Assembly: GCA_963699595.1 (NCBI GenBank)
Contig: CAVOUO010000020.1
Span: 34,301-98,300 of the forward strand
Length of the DNA: 64,000 bases
Direction: 5' to 3'
Origin: an uncultured Planctomycetota bacterium
Lineage (GTDB): Bacteria > Planctomycetota > Phycisphaerae > Sedimentisphaerales > Anaerobacaceae
A program made the translations under genes and the position numbers. The first letter of the stretch is position 1, and each line of letters begins with the position of its first letter. Shown here in pieces: positions 4,947-64,000 of this stretch. Under the pieces are notes generated by a model that ran no database searches, was not told where the DNA came from, and worked only from the letters and a program-made list of their open reading frames with translations.

Positions 4947-4961
4947 CCGATGCCGATTCTT

Positions 4962-13766: not shown

Positions 13767-13789
13767 TTACATTTCTAAAGGAGATCGCA

Positions 13790-14134: not shown

Positions 14135-14176
14135 TGGAAATATCCCTCGGCCCTGGCGCAGAGGCTGTGAGCAAGT

Positions 14177-18891: not shown

Positions 18892-18995
18892 GATGAATCC
18901 CCGGAAAGTGATATGTTCGGAGCTGTCTGTGTGGCAAAAGAGTTTGCTGTGCCTAACTTTTTCGGGCTTGGTTGGGTCCCGGGGAGCGGGCGGAC

Positions 18996-37285: not shown

Positions 37286-38387
37286 ATGGGACGATCGCGT
37301 GTCCGTCCGGCGGAGACTGTGGCGGCCGGACCAGGGGGCCAGGGCCATACGCAGCGCCCGGTGACGGTGCTGTTCACCTGCATCGGCCGCCGGGTATCGC
37401 TGCTGCGCAGCTTTCAGCGGGCCGCGCGAAGGCTGCGTCTCGCAGCCTGCTTCTGCGGCACCGACACCAGCCCCTCAAGTCCGGCCCTGCAGTTGTGCGA
37501 CCAGGCCTTCCTGGTCGAGCCGACAACCCATGCCCAGTACATCGATCAACTCCTGTATCTTGTCCGGGAGCACGCCGTGAGCCTGCTGGTGCCCACCGTG
37601 GACCTGGACCTGCCCCTCTTGGCCCGGCATAAACCGCAATTCGAGGAGTTGGGCTGTCGCGTGCTTGTCTCCGATCCGGATGTGGTCGACACCTGCCAGG
37701 ACAAGCGGCGGACGTTCGGATTCCTGACCAAGAACGGCTTCGGCACTCCGGCGACGATGAGTGTTCGCCAGGCCTTGGCGGCCGACCGCCGGGGAGAGCT
37801 GACCTGGCCGTGTTTTCTGAAGCGATGGGACGGCTACGCCAGCCGGGACAATGCCGTTGTCCATGACGCCCAGCGAGCTGCGGTTCTATGCCCGCCGGAT
37901 TCCCAACGCCCTTTGCCAGGAATTCCTCGAGGGGACCGAGTACACGTGCGATGCGTACATCGATTTCAATCTGAACGTCCGGTGCATCGTGCCGCGCCGG
38001 CGCATCGAGGCCCGCGCGGGCGAGGTGAGCAAGGGACAGATTGTCAAGAACCCCGAGATCATGGACCAGGCGAGAAGGGTGGTCGAGCTTCTCGGGGCGG
38101 GCCCGGGCGTGATCACGTTACAGCTTTTCGTCGCGAAGGATGGCCGGATCAGATTCACCGAGATCAATCCGCGTTTCGGCGGCGGGGCGCCCCTGTCGAT
38201 CCGGGCGGGGGCCGATTTTCCCAAATGGATTCTGCAAGAGCTGACGGGCAAGCGGCCGCGCATCGGTTTTGACGATTTCACGGATGGCTTGCTGATGCTG
38301 CGCTACGACGCCGAGGTCTGGCTGCCGGCATCGGACCTCCGAGGCACGAAGGTCACCGTCCCGGGCCCGTCGGCCGAAGACTCGTGA
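37286..38387 (+). pseudogene. ATP-grasp domain protein (carbamoyl-phosphate-synthase-L-like); one frame break near 37860
   Basis: VTVLFTCIGRRVSLLRSF...VSLLVPTVDLDLPLLARHKPQFEELGCRVLVSDPDVVDTCQDKRRTFGFL...PCFLKRWDGYASRDNAVV (ORF 37232..), then ELRFYARRIPNALCQEFLEGTEYTCDAYIDF...RFTEINPRFGGGAPLS (ORF 37851..38387). Confidence 0.65.
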
Positions 38388-38515
38388 CAAGACTGGGACG
38401 AAGAACAAAACGGAAAGGGGAGAGGTCGCACGGGCTCTAACGGCAGGGCGGAAAGTCGGTGCAAGCAGTCGAAATCGCGTGCGGAAGGGGGGTGCTTCGG
38501 TTAAGATGAGGATGG

Positions 38516-40569
38516 TTGGAAAGCCGCAGGTCCGTGGCAGATTCCGGATGCAAATTCGAGATCGCAGGAAGCGTCAACGGCCCGGCGGAACGTCAAATTG
38601 CTGTGGGGCAGGCCAGAAGCGTGGCGAAGCAGAAAAGACCGGCGAACGCCGGAACAGAACGAAATGAAGGGCAGGGACCACCGAGACGTGGATTCGGACG
38701 CTTTCGCGGATGGCTTGGCTTGGGGGTCGTATTGGTCGCCACGGCGTTTCTGTATGCGCCGGCATTGAATCACCAATTCACGAACTGGGACGACGACCGG
38801 CAGATCACCGCCAATCCCGATATCCGCGACTTGTCGCCGCAGGGCATCGGGAAGATGTTCTCCAGCTTCTATGTCTCGCTCTATCAGCCGCTCACGTCTC
38901 TGTCCTGGGCGGTCGAGTACCGCCTCTTCGGACTCGATCCGCGCATCTACCATGCGGTCAACGTCCTGCTGCACCTGGTGAACATCGTGTTGGTCTACGT
39001 GCTGGTCCGGTCCCTATGCCAGAACGTGGGAATCTCCGTGGTCACGACGGCGCTGTTTGCGGTCCATCCCCTGCAGGTCGAGGTGGCGGCATGGGCTTCT
39101 TCGCGGAGCATTCTGCTGTCTTCCCTGTTCTACCTGGGGGCGATGATCGCCTACATCGCCTACGCCAAGTCCGGCAAGCTGCGCTACTTCGCCCTGGGGT
39201 TGGTGCTTTTCCTGCCGGCTCTGCTGGCCAAGACGACGGCGGCCACACTGCCGCTGGTGCTCCTGGTGATCGATCTGTACCTGGAAAGAAGGGTCAGCCG
39301 GCGGACCATCTGTGAGAAGATCCCCTTCTTCCTGCTGTCTATCGTCTTCGGGTGCATCACGATGCTGGCCCGCAGCGGCGTGAGCCATGTCCAGGATTTC
39401 GCGCTGAAGTACTCCCTGGTGCAGAGGATCTGCATCGTGTGCTATTCCTGCCTGTGGTACGTGGGCAAGCTGGTGTTTCCGGCGGGTCTTTCCGTCTTCT
39501 ATCCGTTTCCAGGCAAGCCGAACGGCTGGTTGCCCGTTGCCTTCTATCTGGCTCCCATGCTGCTGATCGGCCTGGCGGTGGGGATCTGGTACGCCGGCCG
39601 GTACCGCCGGCTGCTGGCCTTCGCGGCACTGTTCATGTTGGCCTCGTTGGTGCTGGTGGTCCAGATCGTACCGGTCAGCGAGCTGATGGTTTGCGACCGC
39701 TACGCGTACCTGCCCTGCATAGGGCTGTTCTTTCTGGCGGGGACTTTGGGCCACCGGCTGGGCTTGCGTAACCCGTCCTGGATGAGAGTGATGCTGGTCG
39801 TCACGGTGCTGGTCCTTGTTGCTCTTGGCGGTCTGACGTTTCAGCGCATCGGAGTATGGCACGATAGCACGACGCTCTGGAACGACTTCATCGGCAAGCG
39901 TCAGGATATTTACGTTGCCTATCTCAATCGCGGTTTGGCAGAGTACGAGGCCGGCGACCGCAAAGCGGCCATCGCCGATTTCGATGCGACCCTGCGACTC
40001 AACCCCAAGGTCGACAAGGCGCTGAACAACCGCGCGGCCGCCTATGCGGCCCTCGGCGACCGCTCGGCGGCCCTGCGTGACTTCGACGAGGCGATCCGGC
40101 TGAACCCCGGATAGCAGCTATCTCGTCAACCGGGGCATCCTGAAACGGGACATGGGGGACTTCGCCGGCGCCGTCGGAGATTTCGACACGGTCATCGAGC
40201 GTAATGCCGCGGAGTGTCAGGGCTCTGTGCGAAAGGGCGGACGCGTACCGGATGCAGGGGAATTGGGCCAAAGCCCGGGCGGACTATGAAGCTGTGCTGC
40301 GGCTCGATCCCAGTCACGTCTACGCGACTTTTCTCCTGGGGGCGGTATTGGTGCAAACAGGCGACAACGAGCAGGCCGTGACCATGCTGAACAAGGCCCT
40401 CACTCTGGGAGGCAAAGACCCGGCCCCGGCGTATTTCCTTCTGGCACAAGCCTATCGGAAGATGGGCCGGATGGACCTCGCAAAGGAGGCCCTGCGCCGT
40501 TCTCAAGAGCTGGGATATCGCGGGCCACAAATCCCACCGCGCCAAACGGAGGGACGCCAGCGACAGTAG
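38516..40569 (+). pseudogene. PMT_2/TMTC-like polytopic glycosyltransferase fused to C-terminal TPR repeats; at least 2 frame breaks near 40110-40200; start uncertain
   Basis: LGLGVVLVATAFLYAPALNHQFTNWDDDRQITANPDIRDL...YHAVNVLLHLVNIVLVYVL...AVHPLQVEVAAWASSRS... has about 10 hydrophobic segments. TPRs follow: YLNRGLAEYEAGDRKAAIADFDATLRLNPKVDKALNNRAAAYAALGDRSAALRDFDEAIRLNP. They continue in other frames (GILKRDMGDFAGAVGDFDTVIE; ALCERADAYRMQGNWAKARADYEAVLRLDP...). Confidence 0.65.
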
Positions 40570-46572: not shown

Positions 46573-46698
46573 CCGCATCCTAGGAGTACTTGTTGCGGAC
46601 CGCTGGGGGTGTTTCGCCGGTTCGTCACGGTCGTTTCAAGATAGGGCATCGGGAAGAAGCGCAGGGGGGCACGTGCCGACCCGGAGACAGGTGCACTG

Positions 46699-47463
46699 AT
46701 GTACAGGAATCGAACCAATTGCGGCGTGTGGCGCGGGGCCAGTTCACTTTCGCACAGAAGGTCTTGGGGGGGCACTCCCGTCTGGCTCTCGGCCCTCGTG
46801 GCGGTTGTCCTGCTCGTTACGGCGGGCGTCGCCTATCGTGCGATGGCAGCCCGCTTGTTCGGCGGTGCCCTCACCCCCGTGAAATTGCCCGTTCCGTTGC
46901 AGCAAGTGCCGGAGCAGATCGGCGGCTGGGCGGGGCAAGACCGGCCGATTCCCGAAAACATCCTGGCCTATATGAAACAAAACTTCGCGGACGATTATGT
47001 CAGCCGCCGGTACGCCAACGAGAAGGAGGGAGTCTGGGCGGATCTCTATGTCGTGTATTGCTCGTCTCGCCCCGGAGGCATCCTGGGACATCAGCCGCGG
47101 GTGTGTTTCCCGGGCAACGGCTGGATTCACGATGAGACGACATCCTCCCAAATTGTCTCCGGCTCGGGCCGTCCGATCGACTGCCTGGTGCATCGCTTTC
47201 ACAACCCGGCTTACCAGCAGGTGGTCGTCGTGAATTTCTATGTTCTCAACGGGCAGATCACGCTGAACGAGCGTGATTTCTCGGGCTTCTGGGGCCGACG
47301 ACCGAACCTCTCCGGAAATCCGGCCCGTTACGTGGCCCAGGTTCAGATCAGCTCGAACCTCGAGCATTCGGCGCGAACCGCGGCCGCGCAAATGGCGGAT
47401 ATCCTCCTGGCGTTTCTGCCGGGTCCAAAGGATCATGCCACTGCGACCCCCGGCGGGAATTGA
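46699..47463 (+). CDS. EpsI-family (exosortase-associated) protein
   Basis: N-terminal TM WLSALVAVVLLVTAGVAY, then VPEQIGGWAGQDRPIPENILAYMKQNFADDYVSRRYANEKEGVWADLYVVYCSSRPGGILGHQPRVCFPGNGW. This matches the remembered EpsI pattern (W.G.D...DD...R.Y...Y...H.P..C.PG.GW). Confidence 0.65.
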   Translation: MYRNRTNCGVWRGASSLSHRRSWGGTPVWLSALVAVVLLVTAGVAYRAMAARLFGGALTPVKLPVPLQQVPEQIGGWAGQDRPIPENILAYMKQNFADDYVSRRYANEKEGVWADLYVVYCSSRPGGILGHQPRVCFPGNGWIHDETTSSQIVSGSGRPIDCLVHRFHNPAYQQVVVVNFYVLNGQITLNERDFSGFWGRRPNLSGNPARYVAQVQISSNLEHSARTAAAQMADILLAFLPGPKDHATATPGGN

Positions 47464-49111
47464 CCGCTTCGTATGGCGTCGTCGAGTGGAAATCAGCAAG
47501 CGCGTTGTCTTGATCAACACCGCCAGCGTGGTGTTGGCGCGGGTGATCAATCTGGCGGTAGTGTTGTGGCTGAACGCCCATCTGCTGCGCCGGATCAGCC
47601 CGGAAGAATTGCAGCTCTGGCCCTTGCTGATGTCGGTCATCGTTCTCCTGCCTTTGTTTACGTCGATCTTGACGTTGGGCATCGGCCGGTTCGTGCTGGC
47701 GGCGTACGCGACAGGGGATGACCGCACCGTGACGCAAATTGTCTCCACGATGTTCCTGCCGTTGCTGGGCGCAGCCGCCATCATCCTGACCGGAGGATTG
47801 ATCCTCGCGTGGCACATCGACAAAGTCCTGGTCGTGCCGGCCGGACAACTCTGGGATGCGCGGATCATGATGGCGCTGCTGATCTTTGCGGCGGCCGTCA
47901 AGCCGCCCTGCACGGCATTCAGCGTGGGGTTCTTCGTGCAGCAGAAGTTCGCCTTGTACAATGGCATTGGGATCGTCAACGAGCTGCTGCGCGTCTTTCT
48001 GTTAATCGTTTTGCTCGTCGGGGTCAGCACGCGTGTCCTGTGGGTGGTCGTCGCCAACGTAGCCACCGAGCTGGTCCTCACCGTGGTTCTGCTCCTGATG
48101 TCCCGGCGCATGATTCCGGCCTTACGGTTCCGGGTCCGGGAGATCCGGTGGGAGAGGGCGCGGGAGGTCGTGTCCTTCGGGGGCTGGAACGTCCTGGGCA
48201 CCATGGCCGTTCGGATGCGCGAGACGGCGGTCCTGCTGCTCTTGAACTGGCTGGCCACACCGATGGATGTGGTGGTCTTCAACCTGGGGTACCTGGGCCG
48301 GCGCCAGATCGATGCGTGGTCGGACGTTCTGGGGGGGCCCCTGTATCCGGTCGTGACCAGTATGCATGCCATGGGGGCGAAGGATCGGATTCGCGCGATC
48401 TATGTGCGAGGCGGGCGCATTGCCTTGTGGATTCTGCTCATGATCGCACTGCCGGCCGCCCTCTACGCCGAACCCATCATTCGCCTGTACGCCACCAAGA
48501 CTTATCTGGAGGCGGCGGTCGTCATGGTCCTGACCCTGGGGGGGCTTCCGGTCGCGTGCGGAGCGTGGATGATCTGGCAAGTGGCCAGTGCCACGGACCG
48601 CCTTCGACCCACGAGCCTGTACGTCCTGGCGACCCAGGCCGCCATCGTGGCGCTGGTCATCTGTGCCGTGCGCCTGTTGGGATGGGGCGCCTCCGGCGTG
48701 GGTCTGGCCGCTTTCGCCGTGGAGTTCGTCGTGGAGTTCCTGGTGCTGTGGCCCTTGGGGCTGAGGCTGGCCGGTGCGACATTCGACGCGTGGGTGCGCG
48801 AAGCCCTGATCCCCGGCCTGACACCGGGCTGCGTCGCTTCGGTCGTGTGGGCGGCGTTGGCGCTCATCGTCAGGCCGGATAGTTGGGTGGCGGTCGGCCT
48901 GTGTACGGCCGCCGGCCTTCTGTGTTACTGGGCGGTACTGCTGGTATTCTGTTTGGAGCCGCGCGATCGGGAGGACTTGACGAAACTGGTCGCGCGACTC
49001 GGGGATTCTCTACGGTCGCCGTTCGGGGTGCCCCCGGCGACTCCGGTCCATTCCCGCGCGAGTGTCGAATCCGCTTCGCGACCGGCCGTGCCGCAAGACC
49101 ATCGTGGTTGA
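47435..49111 (+). CDS. Polysaccharide flippase (MOP/Wzx-like, multi-TM)
   Basis: Intact ORF; ATG 47435 overlaps the EpsI end. About 12-14 hydrophobic segments, e.g. LINTASVVLARVINLAVVLWLN, LFTSILTLGIGRFVLAAY, GGWNVLGTMAVRMRETAVLLLL, IALWILLMIALPAALY. Confidence 0.6.
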   Translation: MPLRPPAGIDRFVWRRRVEISKRVVLINTASVVLARVINLAVVLWLNAHLLRRISPEELQLWPLLMSVIVLLPLFTSILTLGIGRFVLAAYATGDDRTVTQIVSTMFLPLLGAAAIILTGGLILAWHIDKVLVVPAGQLWDARIMMALLIFAAAVKPPCTAFSVGFFVQQKFALYNGIGIVNELLRVFLLIVLLVGVSTRVLWVVVANVATELVLTVVLLLMSRRMIPALRFRVREIRWERAREVVSFGGWNVLGTMAVRMRETAVLLLLNWLATPMDVVVFNLGYLGRRQIDAWSDVLGGPLYPVVTSMHAMGAKDRIRAIYVRGGRIALWILLMIALPAALYAEPIIRLYATKTYLEAAVVMVLTLGGLPVACGAWMIWQVASATDRLRPTSLYVLATQAAIVALVICAVRLLGWGASGVGLAAFAVEFVVEFLVLWPLGLRLAGATFDAWVREALIPGLTPGCVASVVWAALALIVRPDSWVAVGLCTAAGLLCYWAVLLVFCLEPRDREDLTKLVARLGDSLRSPFGVPPATPVHSRASVESASRPAVPQDHRG

Positions 49112-51401
49112 CGACGGGTGAGGACGGGCGTTCGCCCTCCGCTCGAAATCGCACTTCCGTGAGCGCCGCGTCGCAGGCGACGGCGGCTGCGACGCCGAGC
49201 ACCGCATATCTTCCCGGAAATAGAGCTGCCGGCTCGGAGGTTGCCCCCGAGCCGGCAGGATCGAATCCATCAGGCAGGACCGGCTCAAGCCCTCGAAGAC
49301 GTTGCAACGTCTGCGGGCCTGCACTTCTATGCGTTCATGCCTTGTCCCGGCCTGCCGGAGCCTTTTCTTCGATCGCGGCACCGCAGAATCATCATGATGA
49401 TGCCAAGGGCGGCGCAGGGCACGAGCAACTGGCTCGGCGCAGCCCTCCCCACTCGGAGAAAGGGCGCAGCCGCCGGCGGCACCCGTGCCGGTCGCGGCAC
49501 CGGCCGCATCGGCATCGACCAGATAGAACGGCGTGAAGTGCGTCGTCCGGAACTGCAGCGCGCTCAACCTGGTGGAGATATAGAGGTTCTGGACATCTGT
49601 GATCCCCTGTTGACTGAGCGCCCCGGTCACGGAATCGTACCAGTAGGGCAGGATGCGTCGCTTGCCGGTGGAGGTGGTGTACGGAATGGTTACCGTCACC
49701 GCGCTGCTCGAAGTTGGAGCCGCTGGGCCCGAAGTCGTAGCTTCCCAGCAGAGCCTCGCTCGAGATCTGCGGATTGAGGATCCGGGAGATGGCCATGCGG
49801 AGGTCCGCCTGGCAAGCTCCGGCCGGCACAATGATCGATACGTCTTCCGGCCCGTTGATGGCGGCCGGGTCGGTTCCGATCGTGGCGCCTGCCGAGGCCA
49901 CGACCACTTTCGAGTCCAACGGGTTGGGATCGATGAGCGTGGTCGCGGCACTATAGATCTCCGTCGTGGTTCTGCGGTAATCCGTCCAAACCAGATACGG
50001 CTCGCCGTAGCGATCCACGCCGATGGCGGGGTCGCCCTGGTTGGCGTTCGTGCCGTCGTCACCGACGAGGATGTTGGTCCCGGCCGTCCCGGACCGCAGT
50101 TCGGCAACGTACAAGTCCGTGTCAGTGTCCGTGGCGCCGGTATGACGCCAGTCAGTCCAGCAGGCGAAGACCCGCTGGTCCGGGCCGCAGACGACGGCCG
50201 GTGCGGTCTGGTCTGGCGCCGGAGGTGTCGTCGCTGATGCTGATGCCGGCTCACGGGACTGCTCGGCAGACCGTTCAGCGCGGCGTAGCAGACCTCTGTG
50301 TTGCCGCTGCTGTTGTCCACCCACAGCAGGTGCAGGACGGTTCCCGCCCCGGCCGCCACGGCCGGCTGGGTCTGCTCGGCCAGGCCCGGTCACGACCGGC
50401 ACATTGGGCCAGCCCGCCGATGTTGGAGGCAGCGGCATAGATATCCGCCTGGCCGTTCCTCATGTCCGTCCAGAAGACGTAGGCAACGTTGTCGGCGTCG
50501 ACCGCCAGAACCGGTTCTTTCTGGTCCGCGGCGTTGTTCGTGATCTGCGACACCAGTGGACGTGGCAAAGGCATTGGTGGAGCTGGCCGCGTAGATGTCC
50601 TGGTTGCCGTTGCGGTCATCCTGCCAGGCCGACGTAGACGCGGCTCGGCGACTGATGATCGACGGCCAGCGCGGGATTGATCTCGTGGTGCGTGGAATCC
50701 GTGACCCGTACCTCTTTGGTGAAAGTCGCCCCATCCGAACAGATGGCGGCGTAGATATCCCAGTTGCCATTGCGATTGTCCTGCCAGACCACGTACACGG
50801 CGCCCGTCGCACTGACGGCCAGCGCCGGATTGCACTGGTCGCGCCTGTCTGCGGTGAGCCGAATAGGTACTTGGAAGGTACTGGCGTCAAACGCCCGTTT
50901 CGCGATGTAGATGTCCCGGCTGCCCACGGCCCCGGTGTGCCAGGCCACCCAGAGGTTCCCGGCGGGATCGCTCGCCGCGGCCGGCTGGCTGTCGGCATAA
51001 CCTCCCGCGGTGCTGACCGACCGGTTCTTGCCGAAGGCCCGCATTTCCGTCGTGAAGGAGATCTGGCACTCGCTCATGACATTTCCCGCCTGGTCGGCGG
51101 CATTCACGCGGACGGCCACCGTCTGGTCGAAGCCGAACATCGCATTGGGCTGGTAGATGAACCGATAATCATTCTTCGTGCCGGAACGGCTGCATTGGCC
51201 CTTTGCGCTCGTGTAGACGGCCATGTTGCCCTGGTAGACGACGTTGCCATCGACCCGAATCGCCACGGAATTGGCGTCCACGCCGGAGTTGGCGTCGGTG
51301 ATATGAAGCGTCACCAGGTTGTTCAAGGGCACTTGAATGGCGTCCGGGGCCGGCGACCACTGGACCACCGCCGGAGCAATCTGATCGTTCAGAACGCCGG
51401 A

Positions 51402-53677
51402 CACGGTGAGGCTGACCGTCTCGGAGTCCGTAAGCTGGCCATCGCTGACGGTGAAGGTGACCGGATAGGTGCCGGTCTGGCTGGACGCGGGTGTCCAGGC
51501 AAAGGTCTGACCCGTCAGCGCGGCGCCGCTGGGCAGCGCACCGGCGGAATAGGTCAGACTATCTCCGTCCGGGTCGGTCGCCGAGAGGACGAAGCTCAGG
51601 GGCTTGGTCGCGTCCACCGTCCTGCTGCCGATGGCGGCCAGAATCGGCGGTCGGTCCACATGGACGACGGTAATGGTGATGGTCTGTGAGGTCTGCAACT
51701 GGCCGTCACCGGCGGTGAACGTCACGTCATAGCGGCCGGCCTGGGTGTAGGTCGGCGTCCAACTGAACGTCGGACCGGTCAGACCCGCGCCCGTAGGGAG
51801 ACTCGTGGCCGAATAGGTGATGGGATCGTTGTCGGCATCCGTGGCACTGATCGTGAATGTCAGAGCCTGATTCTCACTGGCCGACTTGTTCCCGATGACG
51901 GCCAGGACCGGAGCCGCGTTGGGCTTCGCCACGGTGATCGTGCTGGACTTGGAATCCTGGGCCGTGCCGTCACTGACCGTGACCGTGACCGTGTAGCTGC
52001 CGGCCTGAGTGGCGCCGGGCGTCCACGTGAACGTCTGCCCGGAGAACGTGGCGCCGCCGGCAGGCCGGAGGCCGAGTAGGTCAGAGCGCCGCGGCCGCCG
52101 GTGGCACTAACCGTGAACGTCAAAGTCTGGCCCACGGTCGCCTGCTGATTGCCGATGGAGGCCAGCACGGGAGCCGTGCCGGTCGCGGCCGGCCAGACGG
52201 GACCGCATTGGGCTCGATACGTATCCCACATGTTCGCGGTGAAATTGCTCATCGACCGCCACCAACCGGCGTACTCTCCGCCGGGGGCCGTAAAGGCCAT
52301 GTACCGATCCGTATAGTCGAAGAAGGCGTCGTGATTCCACCGAGCCTTGCCGCCGGGAGTCAGCAGGGCCGCCAGGGCCGTGCCGTGGAAAGGCGGACAG
52401 GCCACCGCGCGGTACTCCGTCGGAAGCCACTTGTTGCTCAGCTCCGGGTTGCTGGAATGCCGAATTCCCCACTCGGGCAGCCCGAGATCGGAGCTGCTGT
52501 ACGGAATCCGCTGGGCATCCCGGGAATCCGGATTCCAGGTGGGGCCGTTCGTGACGCTGACATCGAGCGAGGCCACGTAGAAGGTCTGGTCATCCTCGCC
52601 GAAGTGCACATAGCCGGGCGGATTGTGGGCAGGCCCATAGCCGGTCTGATAGAGAGAATCCCCGGATTGGGCGCCGATGGATTCCATGTCGGTATCGTGG
52701 AGGGCCAGGCCGGCAAAGAGGATGGGCCACTTGCGACCGCCCGCGTGACCGCCGTCATTGAACCAATGCCAGCTACCGCCGTTGGCCACGACCCCGTAGA
52801 GGTCGATCCCCAACTGCACGTACCGGATGAAGAGAGTCTCCTTCTGGGCGTTCGTGAAGTTCAGATGGAGCATCAGGGCGCCGATCCCGATGTTCGTATG
52901 CATCTCGCGCCCGTAGTCGGGCATGTTGAGGCTCGGGTGCTGGTACCGGGCCACCCAAGTCCCCTGGTGGTCGATCCACGGCGCGGCGAACATCGCCTCC
53001 ACGCTCGCCAGCGTCGGTGTCTCGGCGACCGGCGCGAGGGACTTGAGGAGCGAGTAGTTCAACGCGGATTTGTCGAACTTGATCGTTTTGTCCGAGCCGG
53101 AGTATGGAGGCCGGAAACTACCGGCTGCGGCGGGGGAAGTCAAGACCGTCAGAACGGCCGCCCGCTGCAACTGCGGCAGGCTGCCCGCGGCATCCAGGCT
53201 GATCGTCGACACGAGGGACGAATGGGCCGCCAGGACCAGGGGGTTGCTGCTGGACCGGCTGTAGGCCACGTTCAGGGCCGCATCGTAGGTGTTGGAGGGC
53301 ATCGAGTTGTCATACCCCTGGCTGGCATTGCCCGGCACGGGGTTGAGCATCGAGCCATTCCTGATCCGGCCGCTCACCAGCGTGGACGGCGGGTTGATGC
53401 CAATAATCTTGACGGGCCCGACGACCCAGAAATCCCGGTTGGCAAACTGGCCCACCGGGTAGGTGGTGTCGAACGTCCACGTAATGCCGAATTGCTGCAG
53501 GGCACTCGCCCGATAGGAGACCTGGGTAGGCCAGGGGGCGGCGTACGCGGCGGCATCCGCCGACTGGATGATAATCGTGTCGCCGCTGGCGGCGGCGGAT
53601 TGCACCTTGGTCAGGGTCTGCCAGGGGGCACTGCTCGTGCCGGGATTGCTGTCGTTGCCGCTGGCCGTGTTGAGGTA
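51402..53677 (-). repeat. Intragenic tandem duplication, copy 2
   Basis: Starts ATYYLNTASGNDSNPGTSSAPWQTLTKVQ and ends ...TFTVSDGQLTDSETVSLTV. The period is about 2.3 kb. Confidence 0.8.
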
Positions 53678-56000
53678 GTAGGTGGCGGCCGCCACCGGCG
53701 GCTGGTCCACGCCCACGACGGTGATCGTGATCGTCCGGGAGGTCTGCAACTGACCGTCGCTGGCCGTGAACGTCACAGTGTAGCTGCCCGCCTGGCTGGA
53801 GGTAGGCGTCCAGGCAAAGGTCTGGCCCGTCAGCGTGGCGCCGCTGGGCAGCGTGCCGGCGGAGTACGTCAAACTGTCTCCATCCGGGTCCGTCGCCGAC
53901 AGCGTGAAGGTCAGCAGGCTGCTGACATTCACCGACCGGTCAGTGATGTCGGCCAGAACCGGCGGCCGGTCGGTGTTGGCCACGGTGATCGTGATTGTCT
54001 GCGAGGTTTGCGTTTTCCCGTCACTGGCAATGAACGTCACGTTGTAACTGCCTGCCTGGGTGTAGGTCGGGGTCCAACTGAAGGTCGGACTGTTCAGACC
54101 CGCGCCGGCGGGCAAGCCCGTGGCGGAATACGTGATCGGATCGTTGTCGGCATCCGTGGCACTGAGCGTGAACGTCAGCGCCTGATTCTCACCCGTCGAC
54201 TTGTTCCCGATGGTCGGCCAGGACCGGAGCCGAGTTGGGCTTGATCACGGTGATCGTGATGGTCTCGGAATCCTGGGCGGTACTGTCCCGGACCGTGAAC
54301 GTGACCGTGTAGCTGCCGGCCTGGGTTGCCCCCGGGGTCCACGTGAACGTCTGCCCGGAGAACGCGGCGCCGGCCGGAAGCCCGGAGGCCGAGTAGGTCA
54401 GAGTGCCGCTGCCACCCGTGGCGCTGACCGTAAACGTCAGAGTCTGGCCCGTTGCCACCTGCTGATTGCCGAGGGGGGCCAGGACGGGAGCGCTACCGCC
54501 GGTGGCCGGCCAAACGGGTCCCAATTGGGCTCTATAGGTGTCCCACATGTTCGCGGTAAACCCGCTCATCGACCTCCACCAGCCGGCGAATTCCCCCCCG
54601 GTGGCCGTGAAGGCCATATACCGGTCCGCATAATCGAAGAAGGCGTTGTGATTCCACAAGGCTTTGCCGCCGGGAGTCAGCAGGGCGGCCAGGGCCGTGC
54701 CGTGGAAGGGCGGACCCGCGACGTTGCGATACTCCGTGGGAAGGTACTTGTTGCTCATCTCCGGGTTCGTGGCGTGCCGAATCCCCCACTCGGGCAGCCC
54801 GATATCGGAGGTGCTGTACGGAATCTTCACGGCATCCCGGGAATCCGGATTCCACGTGGGGCCGTTCGTGACGCTGACATCGAGCGACGCCACGTGGAAG
54901 GTCTGGTCGTCCTCTCCGAAGTGCAGATAGCCGGGCGGATTATTGCCGGGCCCATAGCCGGTTTGATAGAGGTAATCCCCGGATTTGGCGCCGACGGATT
55001 TCATGGCGGCGTCATTGAGGACCATACCGGCAAAGAGGATGGGCCACTTGCGTCCGCCCGCGTGACCACCGTCATTGGCCCAGTGCCAACTGCCGCCGTT
55101 GGTCAGGATCCCGTAGAAGTCGATACCTAATTGCACATACCGGATGAAAAGGGTTTCCTTCTGGGCGTTCGTGAAGCTCAGATGGAGCATCAGGGCGCCA
55201 GTTCCGATGTTCGTATACATCTCGCGCCCATAATCAGGCATGTTGAGGCTCGGGTGTTGATACCGAGCGACCCATCCCGCCTGATGGTCGATCCACGGTG
55301 CGGCAAACATGGCCTCCACACTGGCCAGTGCCGGCGTCCCGGAGACCGGCGCGAGCGACTTGAGCAGCGTGTAGTTCAGCGCGGACTTGTTGAACTTGAT
55401 CGTCTTGTCCGTGCCACAGTACGGGGGCCGGAAGCTGCCGGGTGCGGCAGGGGAAGTCAGAACGGTCAGGACGACGGCCCGCTGCACTTGCGGTAGGCTG
55501 CCCCCCGCATCCATACTGATCGTCGACACGAGGGACGAATTCGCCGCCAGGACGAGGGGGTTGCTGTTGGACCGGTTATAGGCCACGTTCAGGGCCGCAT
55601 CGTAGGTGTTGAAGGGCATCGAGTTGTCATACCCTTGGCTGGCATTGCCGGGCACGGGGTTGAGCATCGAGCCGTTCTTGATCCGGCCGCTGACCAGCGT
55701 GGACGGTGGATTGATTCCGACGATCTTGACGGGTCCGACGACCCAGAAATCTCGGTTGGCAAACTGGCCGACAGGGTAGTCGGTGTCGAACGTCCAAGTG
55801 ATGGCGAATTGCTGAAGGACGCTCGCTCGGTAAGAAACGTGGGTGGGCCAAGGGGCGGCGTACGTGGTGGCGTCCGCCGACTGGATGACGATCGTGTCGC
55901 CACTGGCGGCAGATTGCACTTTGGTCAAGGTTTTCCAGGGGGCACTGATGGTGCCGGGATTGCCGTCGCTGCCGCTGGTCGTATTGAGATAGTAGGTGGC
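53678..56000 (-). repeat. Intragenic tandem duplication, copy 1 (uncharacterised domain + 3 Ig-like domains)
   Basis: Starts ATYYLNTTSGSDGNPGTISAPWKTLTKVQ and ends ...TFTASDGQLQTSRTITITVVGVDQPPVAA. It is about 85 percent identical (by eye) to copy 2 at protein level. Confidence 0.8.
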
Positions 56001-56110
56001 GGCGCTTGCCAGTGCCTGTACCCCCAGGCAGTACGACAGCACCGCCGCGACGCCAAGACGGCGATAGCACACGGTGATTCGGCACTAAGGGATGATCGCT
56101 GTGACTACGG

Positions 56111-56193
56111 GTTTCCATGTTACTGCTCTCGGTGCTACTACGTTCGATGTTGCTGCTTTCCATGCTATTACTTACTTTCTTATGTTCCTTGTT
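56111..56193. repeat. Degenerate ~15-bp tandem repeat (4-5 units) 40-120 nt upstream of the giant gene start
   Basis: Units: gttactgctctcggt / gctactacgttcgat / gttgctgctttccat / gctattacttacttt, with flanking related units. Local GC is clearly below the window average. Confidence 0.55.
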
Positions 56194-59069: not shown

Positions 59070-60054
59070 TGATTCCTGAACCCTCTCGTCAGCATCATCA
59101 TTCCTACCTTCAATCGCGCCGGCGTAGTCACGCGGGCGATCGACTCCGTACTGGGGCAGACTTACCGTCCCGTGGAAGTCGTGGTCGTCGATGATGGATC
59201 GACGGACGAAACGCCGGAAATCCTCCAGAGCTATGGGGATGCCATTGTCTCGGTGGTCCAGGAGAATGCGGGGCCTTCGGCGGCCCGAAATCGAGGCATT
59301 CGGGAATCGAGGGGCGACCTCATCGCCTTTCTCGATTCCGACGATCTGTGGCTGGCCACCAAGCTCCAGCGGCAAGTGGACCTGTTGCAGCGCGCCGGCG
59401 CGGACGTGCCCTGTTGCCTCTGCAACACGCGCATGAGAATCGCAGAGGGCCGGGAGGAGAACTCCTTTCAGATCGCGCAGCTGATCCTGGGAGAGCCGCA
59501 GGGGTTGTGGGTCAATCCGGCCCCGGTCCTGGCGACGCGTTTTGTGCTGTTCTGCCAGGCGGCGTTGATTCGACGGGAATTTCTGCTGGACTGCGGCGGA
59601 TTTGACGAGCGGCTGTGGCTGATGGAGGACCATGATCTGGCACTGCGGCTGGCGTTGCGCGGGCCGTGGGCCGTGATTCGCGATCCGCTCGTCGTGTGGT
59701 GCGGCGCCAACGATGATTTCAACCTCTCGGTCGCGGCCCAGAAAGAGCCGGCGCGGCTCTTGGCGTGCATCGAGTACATCGAGCGGAAGATTCTGGAACA
59801 AGAAAAGGGACGTCGACCGGCAAGTGAAACGATACCTTCAGCGCGATCTTCAAGGGGTCCGCCGGAGATTGTTGGCGCAACGGTGGGGCGCACAGGGGCG
59901 ATTCCTGCCACGGACAGCCGCCAAAATCGTCGCCGGATGGGAGCGCCTCAGGCAAGCATGGTTTCGACGCTCCTGGTCCTATCCCAGGGCGGAACTGCGG
60001 CCGATCCACGACCACGATTCGACGGCTGAGGTCGGGCAGGCGTTCCGGGGGTAG
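59070..60054 (+). pseudogene. Family-2 glycosyltransferase (module 3); start region and the ~59800 region are frame-broken
   Basis: LNPLVSIIIPTFNRAGVVTRAIDSVLGQTYRPVEVVVVDDGSTDETPEIL...NAGPSAARNRGIRESRGDLIAFLDSDDLWLATKL. RBS GGAGG at 59064-59068 and GTG at 59070 are in a neighbouring frame. The C-terminus lies in ORF 59713..60054. Confidence 0.7.
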
Positions 60055-60058
60055 GCGT

Positions 60059-60646
60059 ATGGCCGGCGTTTTCACCACAAAACGATGCGCGAACCTGGCG
60101 GGTGCGGTCTGGCACTACGTGCGTTGGCGCCCCCGGTTCTATTCGTTTGGCTGGCGGTCCCGACTGGGCCGCTGCGATATGCTGACCAATCCGCGGGCCA
60201 TCTCGATCGGTCGAAACGTGCTCATCCGAAAAGGAGCGCGTCTGGAGGCGGTCGGCGCGGATTCCAATGATGGTCCGAAATTGATCATCGGGGATGGCAC
60301 GGCGATCCAGTTCTACTTTCATTGCGGTGCGGCCGGCCGAGTGACGATCGGCCGGAATGTGCTGGTGGGCGGCAGGGTTTATATCACGGACCACGATCAT
60401 AGCTATGATGAGCCGGATCTCAGTGCGCGGGAGAGCCCCAGACTCAGGGTCGCCCCCGTCGAGATCGGCGACGGTGCGTTCCTGGGGGAGGGGTGTGTGA
60501 TCCTGAAGGGCGTGCGCGTCGGGAAACGAGCGGTCGTGGCCGCCAATGCCGTTGTCACCCGGGACGTCCCGGACTTCACCGTGGTCGCCGGCGTGCCGGC
60601 CCGCGTCGTCAAGTCCGTGTCTCCCACGACGAAGTATGACGTGTAG
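60059..60646 (+). CDS. Left-handed beta-helix (hexapeptide-repeat) O-acetyltransferase
   Basis: ISIGRNVLIRKGARLEAV...IIGDGTAIQFYFHCGAAGRVTIGRNVLVGGRVYITDHDH...VEIGDGAFLGEGCVILKGVRVGKRAVVAANAVVTRDVPDFTVVAGVPARVV. Intact. Confidence 0.8.
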   Translation: MAGVFTTKRCANLAGAVWHYVRWRPRFYSFGWRSRLGRCDMLTNPRAISIGRNVLIRKGARLEAVGADSNDGPKLIIGDGTAIQFYFHCGAAGRVTIGRNVLVGGRVYITDHDHSYDEPDLSARESPRLRVAPVEIGDGAFLGEGCVILKGVRVGKRAVVAANAVVTRDVPDFTVVAGVPARVVKSVSPTTKYDV

Positions 60647-60676
60647 ACTCTCCTCGGAAAGCGGTAGCGCAGAACA

Positions 60677-61998
60677 ATGAATAGCCCAGCAACAATCACC
60701 GGCCCGACACTTCTCATCACGATCGTGCTGGCGCTTCATGACGTTCTTTATTCCGCGGCGTTACCTGCTGCTTCCCTACGTCATTGGGGCCTGCTTTGCC
60801 CCGGCGGATCAGGCCGTGATGGTCGGCGAGTTGAACTTCCAGGTGTTGCGCATCCTCGTGGTGGTGGGCATGCTGCGGCTGGCCCTGCGCGGCGAGATCG
60901 TCGCCGGTCCGCTGGAATCGGTTCGACAAGCTGATTCTGGCCTGGTTCGTCGTCGGGAGCATGATCTATGTCATCCAGTGGATGAGCCTGAGCGCCCTCA
61001 TCAACCGCTGCGGCCGGTTCGTCGAGTGGCTCTGTCTTTACTGGGTGTTCCGTCAGAGCGTGCAGTCCTGGAAGGATCTGCGGTTCGCCTACGTGGCCTT
61101 GGCCTTTTGCGCCGTGGCCATGTTGCCCTTTGTCGTCCTGGAGTGGCTCCAGGGGGCGAATCCTTTCGCCGTGCTCGGGCGCGTGGTGACCACGTTCCGG
61201 GAGGAGAACTATCGGTGTCAGGCGACGTTTCCGCACGCGATCATGATGGGTCTGTTCTGGGCGACGCTGGTGCCCTTGTTCGTGGTCTTTGCCCGGCAGC
61301 GGGGGTACCACCGTTCGGTGCTGTGGGCCGCCGTGGTCGCCAGCACTCTGATGATCTGGATGACGGCCTCGAGCACGCCCATCCTCACCGTGATGGCCGT
61401 CGGTGCCTTGCTGCTCGCGTTCCCGTTGCGACAATACACCGGGACCGCGGCGTGGGGGTCCTGGCGCTGGTGATCGCCCTGAATTTTGTCATGAAGGCTC
61501 CCGTCTGGCACCTCGTCGCGCGCGTCGGGCGTGGTCTCCGGCTCGACCGGCTGGCACCGTTTCTATCTGATCGACCAGTCCATCCGCAATTTCCGTCATT
61601 GGATGTTGCTCGGCACGCGCGACACGAGGAGCTGGGGCTTGGGATTGGAGGACGTGACCAATCAGTACATCCTGGAAGGGGTGCGCGGCGGGTTCATCAC
61701 GTTGGTCTTGTTCTGCGTGATCCTTTTCGTGGGCGCCCGGACGGTGGTGCGCCTGTCGGTGCGTTCCCGGGACGCGAGCGAATCCTATCTGGCGTGGGGC
61801 CTCTTTGTCACGATCATCGCTCACTGCCTGTCGTTCATCGGGGTCTCCTATTTCGGTCAGATCGACATGATCTGGTATCTTCTGCTCGCGGGCGTGGCGT
61901 TCGCGTACGGTCAGGTCTATGAGGCGCCGCAACACCTGGAGCGGGTGGCGGTCGCCGCACGGCCGCAACAGGCCCATTGGCAAGGTGCCCGCACATGA
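60677..61998 (+). pseudogene. O-antigen polymerase/ligase-like (Wzy-type) polytopic membrane protein; at least 3 frame breaks
   Basis: Hydrophobic, coherent segments lie in four ORFs: 60677.. (TLLITIVLAL), 60738.. (YLLLPYVIGACFAPADQAVMVGELNFQVLRILVVVGMLRLAL), 60961.. (LRFAYVALAFCAVAMLPFVVLEWLQGANPFAVLG...MGLFWATLVPLFVVFA) and 61531.. (GFITLVLFCVILFVGARTV...WGLFVTIIAHCLSFIGVSYFGQIDMIWYLLLAG). Confidence 0.5.
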
Positions 61999-62978
61999 GC
62001 CGGCCGACCGTCTCCGTGGTCATCGTGAACTGGAACACCCGCGAGATCCTGCGCGATTGTCTGCGGACGGTCTACGAGCAGACCAAGGAGGTGGAGTTCG
62101 AGGTGATCGTGGTCGACAATGCGTCCGCGGACGGCTCGGTGGACATGGTCCGGACGGCGTTTCCGCAGGCGGTTCTCCTGGCGAACTCCGCCAATCGCGG
62201 CTTTGCCGCCGCCAACAACCAAGGCATCGAGATCGCGCAGGGACGGTACGTCCTGCTGTTGAACTCCGACACGCTGGTGCTCGACGGTGCCATCGACAAG
62301 ATGGTGCGTTTCGCGGAGGCGCATCCGGAGGCCGCGGCCACCGCGTGCCGGGTGCTGAACCCGGACCGGACGTGGCAGCCCACGTGCTTTCTCTTTCCCT
62401 CCGCGTTGAATCTGCTGCTCGCGGCCCTGTATCTGAACAAGCTGTTTCCGCGCAACCGCTTCTGCGGCCGGGAGCGAATGACCTGGTGGGATGGTCAGGA
62501 CGCGCGCGCGGTCGATGTCGTCACAGGCTGCTTCATCCTCGTTCGGCGTGCCGCGATCGAACAAGTCGGCGTCCTCGATGAGAGCTATTTCATGTACGGC
62601 GAGGAGGCGGACTGGTGTTACCGCTTCCGGAAGGCCGGGTGGAAGGTCCTCTTCACGCCGACCGCCCAGATCGTGCACCTGGGGGGAGCCAGCAGTGCCC
62701 GGCTCAAAGGCCCGATGTGCCTTCAGCTCCGGGCGAGCCTTCTGCTGTTCCTGCGGAAGCATCGAGGCCGGGCGTCTTACGTCGCGGGTTGTGTGTTTGT
62801 GAGCATGTTCTTCCTGTTGCGGCTTCCCCTCTGGCTGGCCACGGCCGCGACCTCGCGTGGCGCCCGTCCGGAGAATTGGGAGACCGCGCGGACATATGCG
62901 GCCGGGTTCTGGCGGGCGCTCTGCGGGTGGAGGGCGCTGTGTGTCCAGAAACGGGCAAGGACTTCCGCGTGCGCATGA
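61995..62978 (+). CDS. Family-2 glycosyltransferase (WbbL/rhamnosyltransferase-like)
   Basis: MSRPTVSVVIVNWNTREILRDCLRTV...EVIVVDNASADGS...NRGFAAANNQGIEIAQGRYVLLLNSDT...GCFILVRRAAIEQVGVLDESYFMYGEEADWCYR. Intact. Confidence 0.8.
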   Translation: MSRPTVSVVIVNWNTREILRDCLRTVYEQTKEVEFEVIVVDNASADGSVDMVRTAFPQAVLLANSANRGFAAANNQGIEIAQGRYVLLLNSDTLVLDGAIDKMVRFAEAHPEAAATACRVLNPDRTWQPTCFLFPSALNLLLAALYLNKLFPRNRFCGRERMTWWDGQDARAVDVVTGCFILVRRAAIEQVGVLDESYFMYGEEADWCYRFRKAGWKVLFTPTAQIVHLGGASSARLKGPMCLQLRASLLLFLRKHRGRASYVAGCVFVSMFFLLRLPLWLATAATSRGARPENWETARTYAAGFWRALCGWRALCVQKRARTSACA

Positions 62979-62994
62979 GAGGGCGGGCCAGAGG

Positions 62995-63927
62995 ATGAAC
63001 CCCGGGGGTGCTGTGCCGGACCCAACGTACGTCTTGATCACGCCGGCCTACAATGAAGGCCGGTTCATCGCCAAAACCATCGAAAGCGTTCTGGCCCAGA
63101 CACGGCAGCCGTTGCGGTGGGTCATCGTGAATGATGGGTCCACCGACGACACCTGGGACATCGTGCAGCGGTATGCCGAACGATGCGGATTCATCGAGGC
63201 CTGTCGGCGTCAGCGCGAGGCCGGCGAAACCTACTACGGCAGCAACGTACACGCGCTTCTCCAGGGCTATGCGAGGGTGAAAGGGTCTGGCCTTCGATTA
63301 CCTGGGCTATTCTGGATGCCGATATGATTCTTTGTCCCCGCTATTACGAGGAGATCTTCCGGCGATTCGAGGCGAATCCCGAGCTGGGGATTGCGACGGG
63401 GACGTACGTCGAAGAGGTTGCCGGGGCCTGGCGGGAGGCCTTCATCGATAGACGCTCGACCCCGAAGGCCCTGCAAGTCTTTCGGCGGGCCTGCTACGGG
63501 CAGATCGGCGGGTATGTGCCTTGTCCCAACGGCGGGGAGGACACGTACACCGAGATCCTGGCGCGGATGCACGGCTGGCAGACCTGGTCGTTCCCGGACC
63601 TCCAGGCCGTGCATCAGAAGCCGGTCGGGACGGGCGACGGGAGCAGCATTCTGCGCGAAATTCCGGCAGGGACTGACCGATTACTGCGTGGCGACCCACC
63701 CGGTCTTCATGATCGCCAAGTGCGCCAGACGCTGTTTCAAGGAAAGACCCTACGGCGGGGCGGGACTGGTCCGGCTGGCGGGTTTCGCCTACGGATACTT
63801 GGTGCACGAGCGGCGGCAGATTGTCGGCGAGGCCCGGCGCTACGTGCGGAAGGAGCAGATGAGCCGGCTGCGGGCCAGTGTCGGACTGGGGCCGCGACTC
63901 TGGCAGCCCGTGCTCGCCGGTCATTGA
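62995..63927 (+). pseudogene. Family-2 glycosyltransferase; at least 2 frame breaks (~63290, ~63650)
   Basis: PTYVLITPAYNEGRFIAKTIESVLAQTRQPLRWVIVNDGSTDDTWDIV. Other frames continue FDYLGILDADMILCPRYYEEIFRRFEANPELGIATGTY...GGEDTYTEILARMHGW... and GLTDYCVATHPVFMIAKCARR. Confidence 0.7.
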
Positions 63928-63936
63928 GGACCATCC

Positions 63937-64000
63937 ATGTGTGGGATTGCCGGCATTGTGAATCGGGTGGCGGGGCCGCCCGATCAGGGGATCGTCCAGG
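63937..64000 (+). CDS. asnB: Asparagine synthase (glutamine-hydrolysing) family, N-terminal 21 codons only; runs off the window
   Basis: MCGIAGIVNRVAGPPDQGIVQ has the Ntn-amidotransferase MCGI(A/C)G start with catalytic Cys2. Confidence 0.55.
   Translation, partial: MCGIAGIVNRVAGPPDQGIVQ

Follow-up and report, generated by a model that had tools for sequence, protein, structure and literature searches.

We describe here a gene on the minus strand of a 64,000-nt stretch of bacterial DNA (the window), at 49327..56118, which is likely to be a single gene of a planctomycete of Phycisphaerae/Sedimentisphaerales type for an anchored or sorted surface protein, belonging to an exopolysaccharide (EPS) locus and carrying an old tandem duplication of a large domain (domain X) together with three Ig domains; the indels that break it would be technical and domain X would be glycan-related. 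The gene was reconstructed to ~2,260 codons from stop-free segments, stitching, collinear intact orthologues and comparison of N-termini.

The stop codon lies at 49327-49329 and a terminator-like hairpin on the same strand (49226..49258; 15-bp stem with 12 G-C pairs) follows ~70 nt past it. Eleven single-base indels interrupt the gene, ten of them within 49327-56072 and the eleventh at ~56085; ten are extra bases and one is a missing base (~52055/52056), hence the gene is continuous within the window only after correction of frameshifts and the sequence as given is without an intact ORF. The frame-corrected stitch of 49327-56072 codes for 2,245 aa and is free of internal stops, in agreement with the ~2,246 codons of the earlier note, which had joined the collinear minus-strand ORFs into one gene. 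The probable true start, METRSHS…, lies ~45 nt upstream of the GTG at 56072. The N-terminus with its signal peptide, METRSHSDHPL…CYRRLGVAAVLSYCLGVQALASA|A (56001..56118, minus strand, extra base at ~56085), was read by three-frame translation against the N-termini of L004, L032 and P0003, with the cleavage read as …ALASA|A. A look-up of the exact product of ORF 54189-56072 returned no database record.

The intact orthologous proteins P0003 (1,488 aa) and P0004 (1,478 aa) cross every ORF junction, which contradicts the possibility, named in the earlier note, that each of the collinear ORFs (54189-56072, 51860-54115, 50616-51932 and others) is a gene of its own with a genuine start and stop. The ORF listing does give distinct ORFs with possible start codons, but each boundary sits within a domain that is continuous in these orthologues, the out-of-frame tails are Arg/Pro-rich nonsense and the internal 'starts' are without signal peptides, so that separate genes are hardly credible. 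It is also quite unlikely that we are looking at a true pseudogene whose 11 frameshifts are genuine mutations and whose protein has been lost. The lack of an intact ORF and the high density of frameshifts in the propeller region (8 in ~1.3 kb) speak for it, and partial real decay is possible there, but the same single-base kind of frameshift was found across the window, all but one of the 11 add a single base outside homopolymers, there is neither a nonsense codon nor a large deletion, and the frame-corrected C-terminal part still shows dN/dS of ~0.24 against orthologues. Disabling mutations were thus not confined to the surface-protein gene: a NuoF-like gene is split within the single Pfam domains Complex1_51K, NADH_4Fe-4S and Fer4_20, and FeoB, a PQQ-propeller gene and the glycosyltransferase (GT2) cluster are broken likewise. 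Frameshifts were checked elsewhere in the window at ~0-5 kb, 19.5 kb and 59.8-64 kb, and some stretches are clean (7.5-18 kb). Against the intact locus L001, the differences inside the gene that are not multiples of three are single bases and the remaining indels are multiples of three. Since similar frameshifts split other genes of the window, the 11 indels are most likely technical errors of the assembly and not gene decay, and the surface-protein gene is probably intact in the organism. Homopolymer slippage was ruled out as their cause, as bases of different kinds were inserted, mostly away from runs. Frame correction, which the earlier note had mentioned in passing, turned out to be a window-wide matter of sequence quality; with the frameshifts most likely technical, automated annotation of this contig would yield many false pseudogenes and split genes.

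Correction of the frames along with domain and structure prediction, as the earlier note had proposed, upheld by Pfam, repeat listing and models the order that it had given: signal peptide, X, three Ig, X, three Ig, a further Ig, about seven repeats and an anchor-like tail. All features are on the minus strand. Domain X1 (54498..56000, ~500 aa, defined by its AF2 model and phrog_34846) has an N-terminal beta part and a C-terminal helical part, and is followed by Ig1a-Ig2a-Ig3a (53690..54497, extra base 54215), by the second copy X2 (52175..53689, 85.9% identical to X1 in amino acids) and by Ig1b-Ig2b-Ig3b (51378..52174, containing the missing base). These He_PIG/Big_9/cadherin-like Ig domains score above the Pfam gathering cut-offs in the three large segments, with 49-107 bits for He_PIG (PF05345; cut-off 24) and 26-88 bits for Big_9 (PF17963; cut-off 23.6), and PKD/cadherin-like models are also among the matches. 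The next Ig domain (51033..51377) is unduplicated and Big_5-like, with a Pfam Big_5 E-value of 0.0033, below the cut-off; the orthologous region was modelled as a beta-sandwich. The propeller (49947..51002, extra bases 50630, 50554, 50412, 50384, 50248 and 50217) has seven …DIYAA-type repeats of ~50 aa which end in (D/E)(I/L/V)(Y/C)xA. The all-beta AF2 model of the C-terminal region of P0004 (pLDDT 80.5) agrees with this fold and Foldseek matched it to sialidase, GH145 and lectin propellers (E ~1e-9); the TIGR04275 match to the region is weak and the PD40 Pfam model had no match in the window protein, hence the TolB/PD40-like label of the earlier note holds at the level of fold class. A C-terminal beta-sandwich follows at 49511..49946 (…FGPSGSNFEQ-VTVTIPY…TTHFTPFYLV; orthologue model; extra base 49703). 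The gene ends in a sorting-signal-like tail (49330..49510, extra base 49444) made of a Gly-rich linker, the motif GGCALSPSGE, the hydrophobic transmembrane helix LLVPCAALGIIMMIL and the basic cluster RCRDRRK.

The duplication is a direct tandem repeat of 56003-53690 and 53689-~51378 on the minus strand. Alignment of 56003..53718 with 53689..51403 gave 85.1% identity over 2,276 aligned nt, close to the 85 percent estimated earlier by eye, and the offset between the copies is 2314-2317, with gaps that are solely 3-nt indels or single bases. Each unit, once an error base is removed, measures 2,313 nt (771 codons) and encodes domain X with three He_PIG/Big_9 Ig domains. The junction GCG|GCC GCC ACC (53684..53695, minus strand), with the sequence GTGGACCAGCCGCCGGTGGCG|GCCGCCACCTACTAC coding for …VDQPPVAA|ATYYLNT…, joins the linker that normally stands before the Big_5 domain to the first mature residues past the signal-peptide cleavage site. 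Because the junction lies within one stop-free stretch (54244-51863), the fusion of Ig3a to X2 is seen directly, without frame correction, and the in-frame duplication with a seamless boundary described in the earlier note is borne out. An illegitimate in-frame recombination in this lineage probably joined the linker past Ig3 to the first mature residues of X, and its outcome would have been two tandem X+3Ig modules of 771 codons each.

Canonical relatives of the gene carry the module once. Among the top matches, 29 of 46 have three Ig domains and ~1,490 aa and cover ~65% of the stitched query. The canonical layout (~1,480 aa) is signal peptide, X, three Ig, Big_5-like Ig, seven-bladed propeller, beta-sandwich and a tail of Cys motif, TM helix and Arg-rich cluster, and only the Ig number varies. 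These single-X orthologues (P0003, P0004 and ~30 others from Sedimentisphaerales/Phycisphaerae MAGs; ~1,470-1,500 aa) are annotated as 'putative Ig domain-containing protein' or 'PKD repeat protein', share the domain order and the tail with 82% amino acid identity over the shared parts, and lie in the same neighbourhood of GT2 cluster, EpsI and membrane protein, but have X+3Ig once where the window gene has it twice. In some close relatives the Ig array alone is expanded, to 7 in P0001, 5 in P0002 and 9 in P0008. The best match of a GTDB genome scan, L004 (87%), is a contig of 2x coverage in which the gene ends past Ig1 and unrelated cytochrome genes follow, and the best matches of a protein-guided metagenome scan (L032, 91%; L033, 86%; L107, 81%) are short contigs with the signal-peptide-proximal X only; these four are uninformative on copy number. 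Multi-X loci appeared in the metagenome scan only among distant relatives, JGI metagenome contigs gave no match when searched degenerately for the Ig3a|X2 junction, and no X-3Ig-X junction was found in a close relative among the orthologues and metagenome loci examined.

The gene is part of a conserved exopolysaccharide/EpsI locus. This includes an EpsI-family gene (46645-47460), which scores 45.4 bits with TIGR02914 (cut-off 42.8), and the adjacent multi-TM protein (47267-49108) had no Pfam or NCBIfam match. The arrangement is the same as in L001 upstream, with a divergent GT2/hexapeptide/AsnB cluster, and as in L003 downstream, with a 544-aa membrane protein, EpsI and a HEAT protein.

The earlier note had called the duplication recent, which the divergence of the copies speaks against. 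Synonymous divergence is 0.472 between X1 and X2 and 0.507 between the two Ig blocks, equal to or above that of the window gene to the positional orthologues L001/L003 in other organisms (0.31-0.46 for X, 0.39-0.42 for the C-terminal part), and X1 is nearer in amino acids to the X of P0001 (91.5%) than to X2. These figures indicate that the duplication is old, at species-level divergence or beyond; should it have happened before the P0001 lineage branched off, X2 must have been lost from that lineage. Purifying selection acts on both copies, since dN/dS between them is 0.16 for X and 0.28 for Ig, and X2 retains every invariant residue of a 45-sequence family alignment. There is no trace of recent conversion because the longest identical stretch is only 33 nt. 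We found no sign of the phase-like length variation proposed earlier: the X+3Ig units, at 85.1% nucleotide identity and with so short an identical run, are not the near-identical units that frequent recombination or slippage at a contingency locus uses.

As for the origin of the second module, it is very unlikely that the tandem arrangement is an assembly artefact, whether a false expansion or a chimeric join of alleles from co-occurring populations. Repeat-rich surface-protein genes do assemble poorly, two related short-read contigs (L004 and L032) go wrong directly past Ig1, L003 stops inside X and the junction was not found elsewhere in the JGI search, but copies 15% diverged with dS far above dN are not a collapsed or expanded identical repeat, and an assembler cannot create such a purifying codon-position pattern; the collapse or expansion feared in the earlier note is accordingly unlikely. 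Moreover, the in-frame join of the Ig3 linker to the first mature residues of X, where the parents share only few bases, is not expected of an overlap-based misjoin, and both blocks, native in GC3, are about as distant from known orthologues as the flanks. It is doubtful that a foreign X+3Ig block was inserted in tandem by recombination with a diverged allele or paralogue, as could follow horizontal transfer from a related species. Such an origin would account for the amino acid difference of X1 from P0001 (8.5%) and L004 (11.3%) against 14.4% from X2, and the NJ tree places X1 beside P0001 and has X2 branching off deeper, with no acceleration of its rate relative to far outgroups; the closest relatives with a complete array are without X2, and X genes or domains often stand in multi-copy clusters that could be donors (L036, L041). 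However, the position of X2 is poorly supported in the tree, the closest-orthologue pattern is mosaic (the Ig block of copy B is nearest to L001 and X1 is the X copy nearest to L003), and ancient duplication with loss in sister lineages fits the data equally well. Foreign origin by composition was dismissed, as GC and GC3 are native in both copies. We prefer an old duplication within the gene. The product is probably 'two-headed', as both diverged copies are kept under purifying selection: a secreted protein, C-terminally anchored or sorted and belonging to the conserved EPS locus, could hold two slightly diverged X modules off the cell on Ig spacers.

The AF2 model of X1 has pLDDT 95.5 and pTM 0.94, and both copies match the profile of phrog_34846, a phage protein family of unknown function, over positions 240-667 of 706 (E 2e-43 for X1, 1e-43 for X2). 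The family has 2,836 representatives (clusters at 50% identity) and occurs in surface proteins of planctomycetes and verrucomicrobia, in actinobacteria and in tail proteins of phages; X also stands alone in proteins that carry a signal peptide of their own, and dockerin, beta-helix, LamG, F5/8 and CBM-type domains accompany X among the homology matches. Ten diverse X cores had no Pfam match at E<=10, a PDB search by sequence profile matched the Ig/LamG parts and not X, and a PDB search by fold with the X1 model (Foldseek) gave nothing significant. Resemblance to alginate lyase or GH alpha/alpha folds was dismissed (TM 0.1-0.2, non-significant). A right-handed beta-helix pectate lyase (Pel9A-like PF22842/DUF1565 PF07602) was dismissed too: the Pfam signal of X1/X2 is limited to a 40-50-aa N-terminal cap (profile positions ~4-52 of 370; 17-27 bits around the 25.2 cut-off), only ~40 residues align with PL9 and GH136 in Foldseek, and the model shows a beta part and a helical half with no beta-helix. 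These comparisons indicate that X is a large, uncharacterised, autonomous domain family. Aromatic and charged residues abound in its invariant columns, and X is probably a glycan-active module which binds or acts on glycans of the cell surface or the extracellular space, its most likely role being that of a depolymerase or modifying enzyme. The 'enzyme array' of the earlier note is a reasonable reading. More tentatively, X may be a new, structurally unprecedented family that cleaves or modifies glycans, used by bacteria in stand-alone secreted proteins and as the heads of giant EPS-locus surface proteins and by phages as a distal tail-protein module, with the old, maintained duplication giving an enzyme with two heads of diverged specificity.

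Tandem duplications as such are commonplace in giant surface proteins rich in repeats; the present case suggests that a whole ~500-aa enzyme-like module, beyond the Ig spacers, can be duplicated and retained under selection. With its confident model, thousands of members and no Pfam or PDB relative, X is a concrete target in the search for new carbohydrate-active chemistry.

The nearest phage counterpart is Halley gp45 (706 aa, phrog_34846; cluster-J Omegavirus), whose X core is ~31% identical over ~400 aa (E 1e-42), and the X1 model matches BFVD models in Foldseek (E ~1e-29, TM 0.66). The cluster-J mycobacteriophage proteins have a minor-tail domain (phrog_8174) at the N-terminus and X as their C-terminal module; they adjoin lysin A and are without the Ig array, propeller and membrane tail that the window gene has. 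In a Microcystis phage the X protein adjoins a tail-fibre gene. Annotations of phage X conflict ('lysin A', 'minor tail protein', 'carbohydrate esterase', 'hypothetical'), and the cluster-J phage paper makes no statement on the X-containing protein.

PEP-CTERM proteins (TIGR02595) start with a signal peptide and end in a TM helix, which is preceded by a near-invariant Pro-Glu-Pro and followed, at the extreme C-terminus, by a basic cluster; their genomes encode an exosortase (EpsH, TIGR02602), as a rule within an EPS locus that also has EpsI (Haft et al. 2006, PMC1569441). The window protein shares the signal peptide, the tripartite tail of short motif, TM helix and basic cluster (helix 648-674 in the AF2 model of the orthologue C-terminus) and the place in an EPS biosynthesis locus beside an EpsI-family gene. 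Unlike them, its tail (…GGCALSPSGEAAPSQLLVPCAALGIIMMILRCRDRRK; GGCAISPSGEGSPGQLLVPY… in orthologues) is without Pro-Glu-Pro and has GGC(A/L)(I/L)S…SP; no TIGR02595 or other -CTERM model of NCBIfam matched the C-terminal tails even at E<=10, and no exosortase was recognised among the window ORFs tested. The shared features may point to sorting by a putative exosortase-like system.

Multi-module CAZymes may have tandem catalytic domains parted by Ig/Fn3 spacers. Although X, with no Pfam match and no PDB match in sequence or fold, could be placed in no characterised CAZy-type family and its catalysis is putative, the window protein is like such enzymes in having tandem enzyme-like modules on Ig spacers, in being secreted and, as predicted, cell-anchored, and in being encoded near polysaccharide genes.

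The self-comparison of window 48-58 kb recovered direct repeats spaced 2,314-2,317 nt apart, and in local alignment the minus-strand segments 56003..53718 and 53689..51403 are 85.1% identical over 2,276 nt, the gaps being limited to 3-nt indels and a small number of single bases. Each unit codes for a domain of about 500 residues starting with ATYYLNT… (domain X; the copies are X1 and X2) and then for three Ig-like domains (Ig blocks A and B), which exceed the Pfam cut-offs in both units (He_PIG, Big_9) with PKD/cadherin-like overlaps. The junction reads GTGGACCAGCCGCCGGTGGCG directly followed by GCCGCCACCTACTAC (…VDQPPVAA/ATYYLNT… in the protein) and lies inside one stop-free stretch, 54244-51863, so the fusion of the last Ig-like domain of block A to X2 is read directly, without any frame correction. 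After one error base is taken out, the duplicated unit has 2,313 nt or 771 codons; its 5′ edge is the first mature residue past the signal-peptide site (…ALASA/A) and its 3′ edge is the linker which precedes a Big_5-like domain in single-copy relatives. The in-frame tandem duplication described in the earlier note is thus confirmed, and the domain anatomy given there was right.

The target gene (49327..56118, minus strand) is not one ORF in the window sequence as given. Frame changes were located on the minus strand at 54215, ~52055, 50630, 50554, 50412, 50384, 50248, 50217, 49703 and 49444, and an eleventh at ~56085, upstream of the GTG (56072) from which the gene had previously been started. 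All but one of the eleven are one extra base, the other being one missing base, and the insertions involve all four bases (T, A, G, C), for the most part outside homopolymers. The frame-corrected translation from the GTG gives 2,245 aa free of stops; the true start is likely METRSHS… at ~56118, judging from the same start in two related short-read contigs (L004, L032) and in P0003. Alignment with the intact orthologue of locus L001 (P0004; JGI 3300032046) shows exactly these single-base differences along with a few in-frame indels. The single gene obtained by stitching is real, as P0003 and P0004, which are intact orthologues with one X (1,488 and 1,478 aa; 82% identity to the stitched protein), are collinear with it across every frameshift.

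A codon-usage Viterbi pass was run on the whole window, with frame changes confirmed by translation and Pfam, and same-strand frame hopping of the same kind was found in several other regions. The PQQ-propeller gene (82-1000) runs on through three frames, and in the NuoE/NuoF-like gene set (1000-3740) individual Pfam domains are divided between different frames: Complex1_51K (profile positions 1-25 and 53-124), NADH_4Fe-4S (1-48 and 58-85) and Fer4_20 (27-54 and 57-108). FeoB is split between two frames, one with the G domain (…GNPNVGKS…) and the other with the remainder, and with respect to L001 there are single-base insertions in the glycosyltransferase cluster at 59.8-64 kb. The frame-split genes, several GT2 or unknown genes included, are located in 82-5000, 18957-20946 and 59800-64000. 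The part at about 7.5-18 kb is clean, and the AcrB/CusA-like gene of 1,320 codons is free of frameshifts. The CusCBA-like heavy-metal efflux operon (10721-18130) is intact, unlike the frameshifted regions, and comprises an outer-membrane factor, an HlyD/CusB-type adaptor bearing HMBD and YHS metal-binding domains, and the AcrB/CusA-type pump of 1,320 aa. Indel errors, most of them +1 insertions, appear to be clustered by region in the contig. Since other window genes are split likewise, the frameshifts belong to the sequence record and not to the target gene, and they are very probably indel errors of assembly or sequencing, in which case the gene would be intact in vivo.

The search with the stitched protein gave a tight family of about 30 proteins of 1,470-1,500 aa from Sedimentisphaerales, Phycisphaerae or Planctomycetota MAGs, named “putative Ig domain-containing protein” or “PKD repeat protein” in the source, which align to ~65% of the query and leave out just one X+3Ig unit. 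Of the first 46 matches, 29 show three Ig motifs; the count is higher in several of the closest relatives (P0001 7, P0002 5, P0005 5, P0008 9), and a second X was present in none. This makes the Ig array a recombination hot spot in the clade. In P0001, the closest positional orthologue (L003, 1171-3036; JGI 3300056904), the array grew independently by triplication of the Ig2-Ig3 pair, the linkers being hybrid (…TSSKTASILV(I/S)Q(P/S)NVAPVLA…), at the point where the window gene has the extra X+3Ig. Among the versions seen, only that of the window has an expansion which takes in X. The surroundings are shared as well, with the divergent GT2/hexapeptide/AsnB/Alg14 cluster upstream in L001 and the 544-aa membrane protein, EpsI and HEAT protein downstream in L003 all present in the window. 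Within a conserved family of planctomycete surface proteins from EPS loci, the target gene encodes a lineage-specific architectural variant.

The possibility that the assembly produced the second unit was considered in two forms. Collapse or expansion of identical repeats, of which the earlier note had warned, is unlikely, because the units are 15% apart and their differences are codon-structured. A chimeric join creating X-3Ig-X is unlikely; the junction is absent from the JGI metagenome contigs searched, but the junction partners have just a few bases in common and the fusion is in frame and at a domain boundary. Related short-read contigs (L003, L004, L032) break within the region of the duplicated gene. 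In L004 (10535-10650) and L032 (~2900-2975) the similarity to the target gene ends right after Ig1, beyond which L004 has unrelated cytochrome genes, which suggests a chimeric contig, and L003 ends, at its position 1, inside X. As these contigs go wrong in the gene, public short-read MAGs are unreliable on copy number and architecture of this family.

The duplication had been called recent, and the divergence of the copies contradicts this: dS is 0.47 between X1 and X2 and 0.51 between Ig blocks A and B, against 0.31 from X1 to L003 and 0.42 from X1 to L001 (for the unique C-terminal part, window to L001 0.42 and to L003 0.39). X1 has 91.5% protein identity to the X of P0001 and 85.9% to X2, and in the neighbour-joining tree it clusters with P0001 and L004, while X2 lies deeper at a weakly supported exact position. 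X2 is not simply fast-evolving, because it is no further from far outgroups than X1. The dN/dS values are 0.16 (X) and 0.28 (Ig), all 37 invariant residues of a 45-sequence alignment, among them E363/D364, R317/K318, Y424/R425 and H451, are kept by X2, and GC3 is native in both copies. Identical runs between the units reach 33 nt at most, with no sign of recent conversion between the copies or of a phase-variable repeat, so the suggested phase-like variation was not borne out. From the dS values, the closeness of X1 to P0001, the low dN/dS and the kept invariant residues, we conclude that the duplication is old and both copies are maintained. Either X2 was lost in the sister lineages or a diverged allele was the source of the second unit.

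Domain X itself is a more valuable lead than the duplication. The X1 model (pLDDT 95.5, pTM 0.94) combines a beta-rich N-terminal part (residues 1-181) with a C-terminal half made of helices (225-493). Resemblance to Pfam and PDB entries is confined to the first ~45 residues, a PL9/GH136-type beta-helix N-terminal cap; the body gave no Pfam match even at E<=10 with ten diverse members, no PDB match by sequence and no significant one by fold. The family has 2,836 representatives at 50% clustering (1,366 with E<=1e-30), and many members are stand-alone proteins of 450-600 aa, while a few have 4-8 copies, with up to eight in P0126 (3,989 aa). L036 (1-2676) carries a tandem pair of stand-alone X genes, of which one is complete and has a signal peptide of its own (a stand-alone X occupies 1036-2676), and L041 (1197-16691) has seven X-like regions in 18 kb. 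X also occurs in 21 cluster-J mycobacteriophage records (~31% identity over 400 aa), where it forms the C-terminal module in a 706-aa protein closing the minor-tail block (loci L111, Halley 38266-40386, and NC_022066.1 36028-37230); in Halley gp45 a minor-tail N-terminal domain precedes X, and lysin A comes directly after it. The labels conflict, being “minor tail protein” in Halley, “hypothetical protein” in others and “lysin A” in Redno2, which is perhaps misannotated. The phage family is also matched by L017, a homologue from Rhodococcus tukisamuensis (E 7e-112). Two Microcystis phages have X too, in Mwe-JY25 within a 1,171-aa protein adjoining a tail-fibre gene, and in bacterial matches its partners are dockerin, beta-helix, LamG, F5/8 and Fn3 modules. 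From the family, the phage tails and the co-occurring modules we infer that X probably binds or cleaves surface or extracellular glycans.

The C-terminal third, modelled on P0004 (pLDDT 80.5), has an Ig-like domain, a seven-repeat propeller matching sialidase, GH145 and lectin propellers (E ~1e-9), a beta-sandwich, a disordered Gly-rich linker and a terminal helix. P0003 and P0004 share the tail GGCAISPSGEGSPGQLLVPY…RRRDRRK, and the pattern GGC(A)IS-x4-6-SPxQLLVPY, hydrophobic helix and RRRDRRK is conserved in the family (C-termini of P0003, P0004, P0007, P0008 and window 49330-49510, where the basic cluster reads RCRDRRK). A strong hairpin lies 3′ of the stop codon (49258-49226, minus strand). 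The neighbouring 46645-49108 holds an EpsI-family gene (TIGR02914 above cut-off) and then a multi-pass membrane-protein gene of ~544-612 aa, a pair conserved in L003. No Pfam or NCBIfam model matched this membrane protein; it could be a divergent sorting or export component, as EpsI is in most cases either fused to the 8-TM exosortase or encoded next to it (Haft et al., PMC1569441). No known -CTERM model matched the tail, which may represent an undescribed sorting-signal class in Phycisphaerae. In comparison with PEP-CTERM, the target tail is without the PEP motif but likewise has a three-part sorting-signal layout, in an EPS locus and adjoining an EpsI-family gene.
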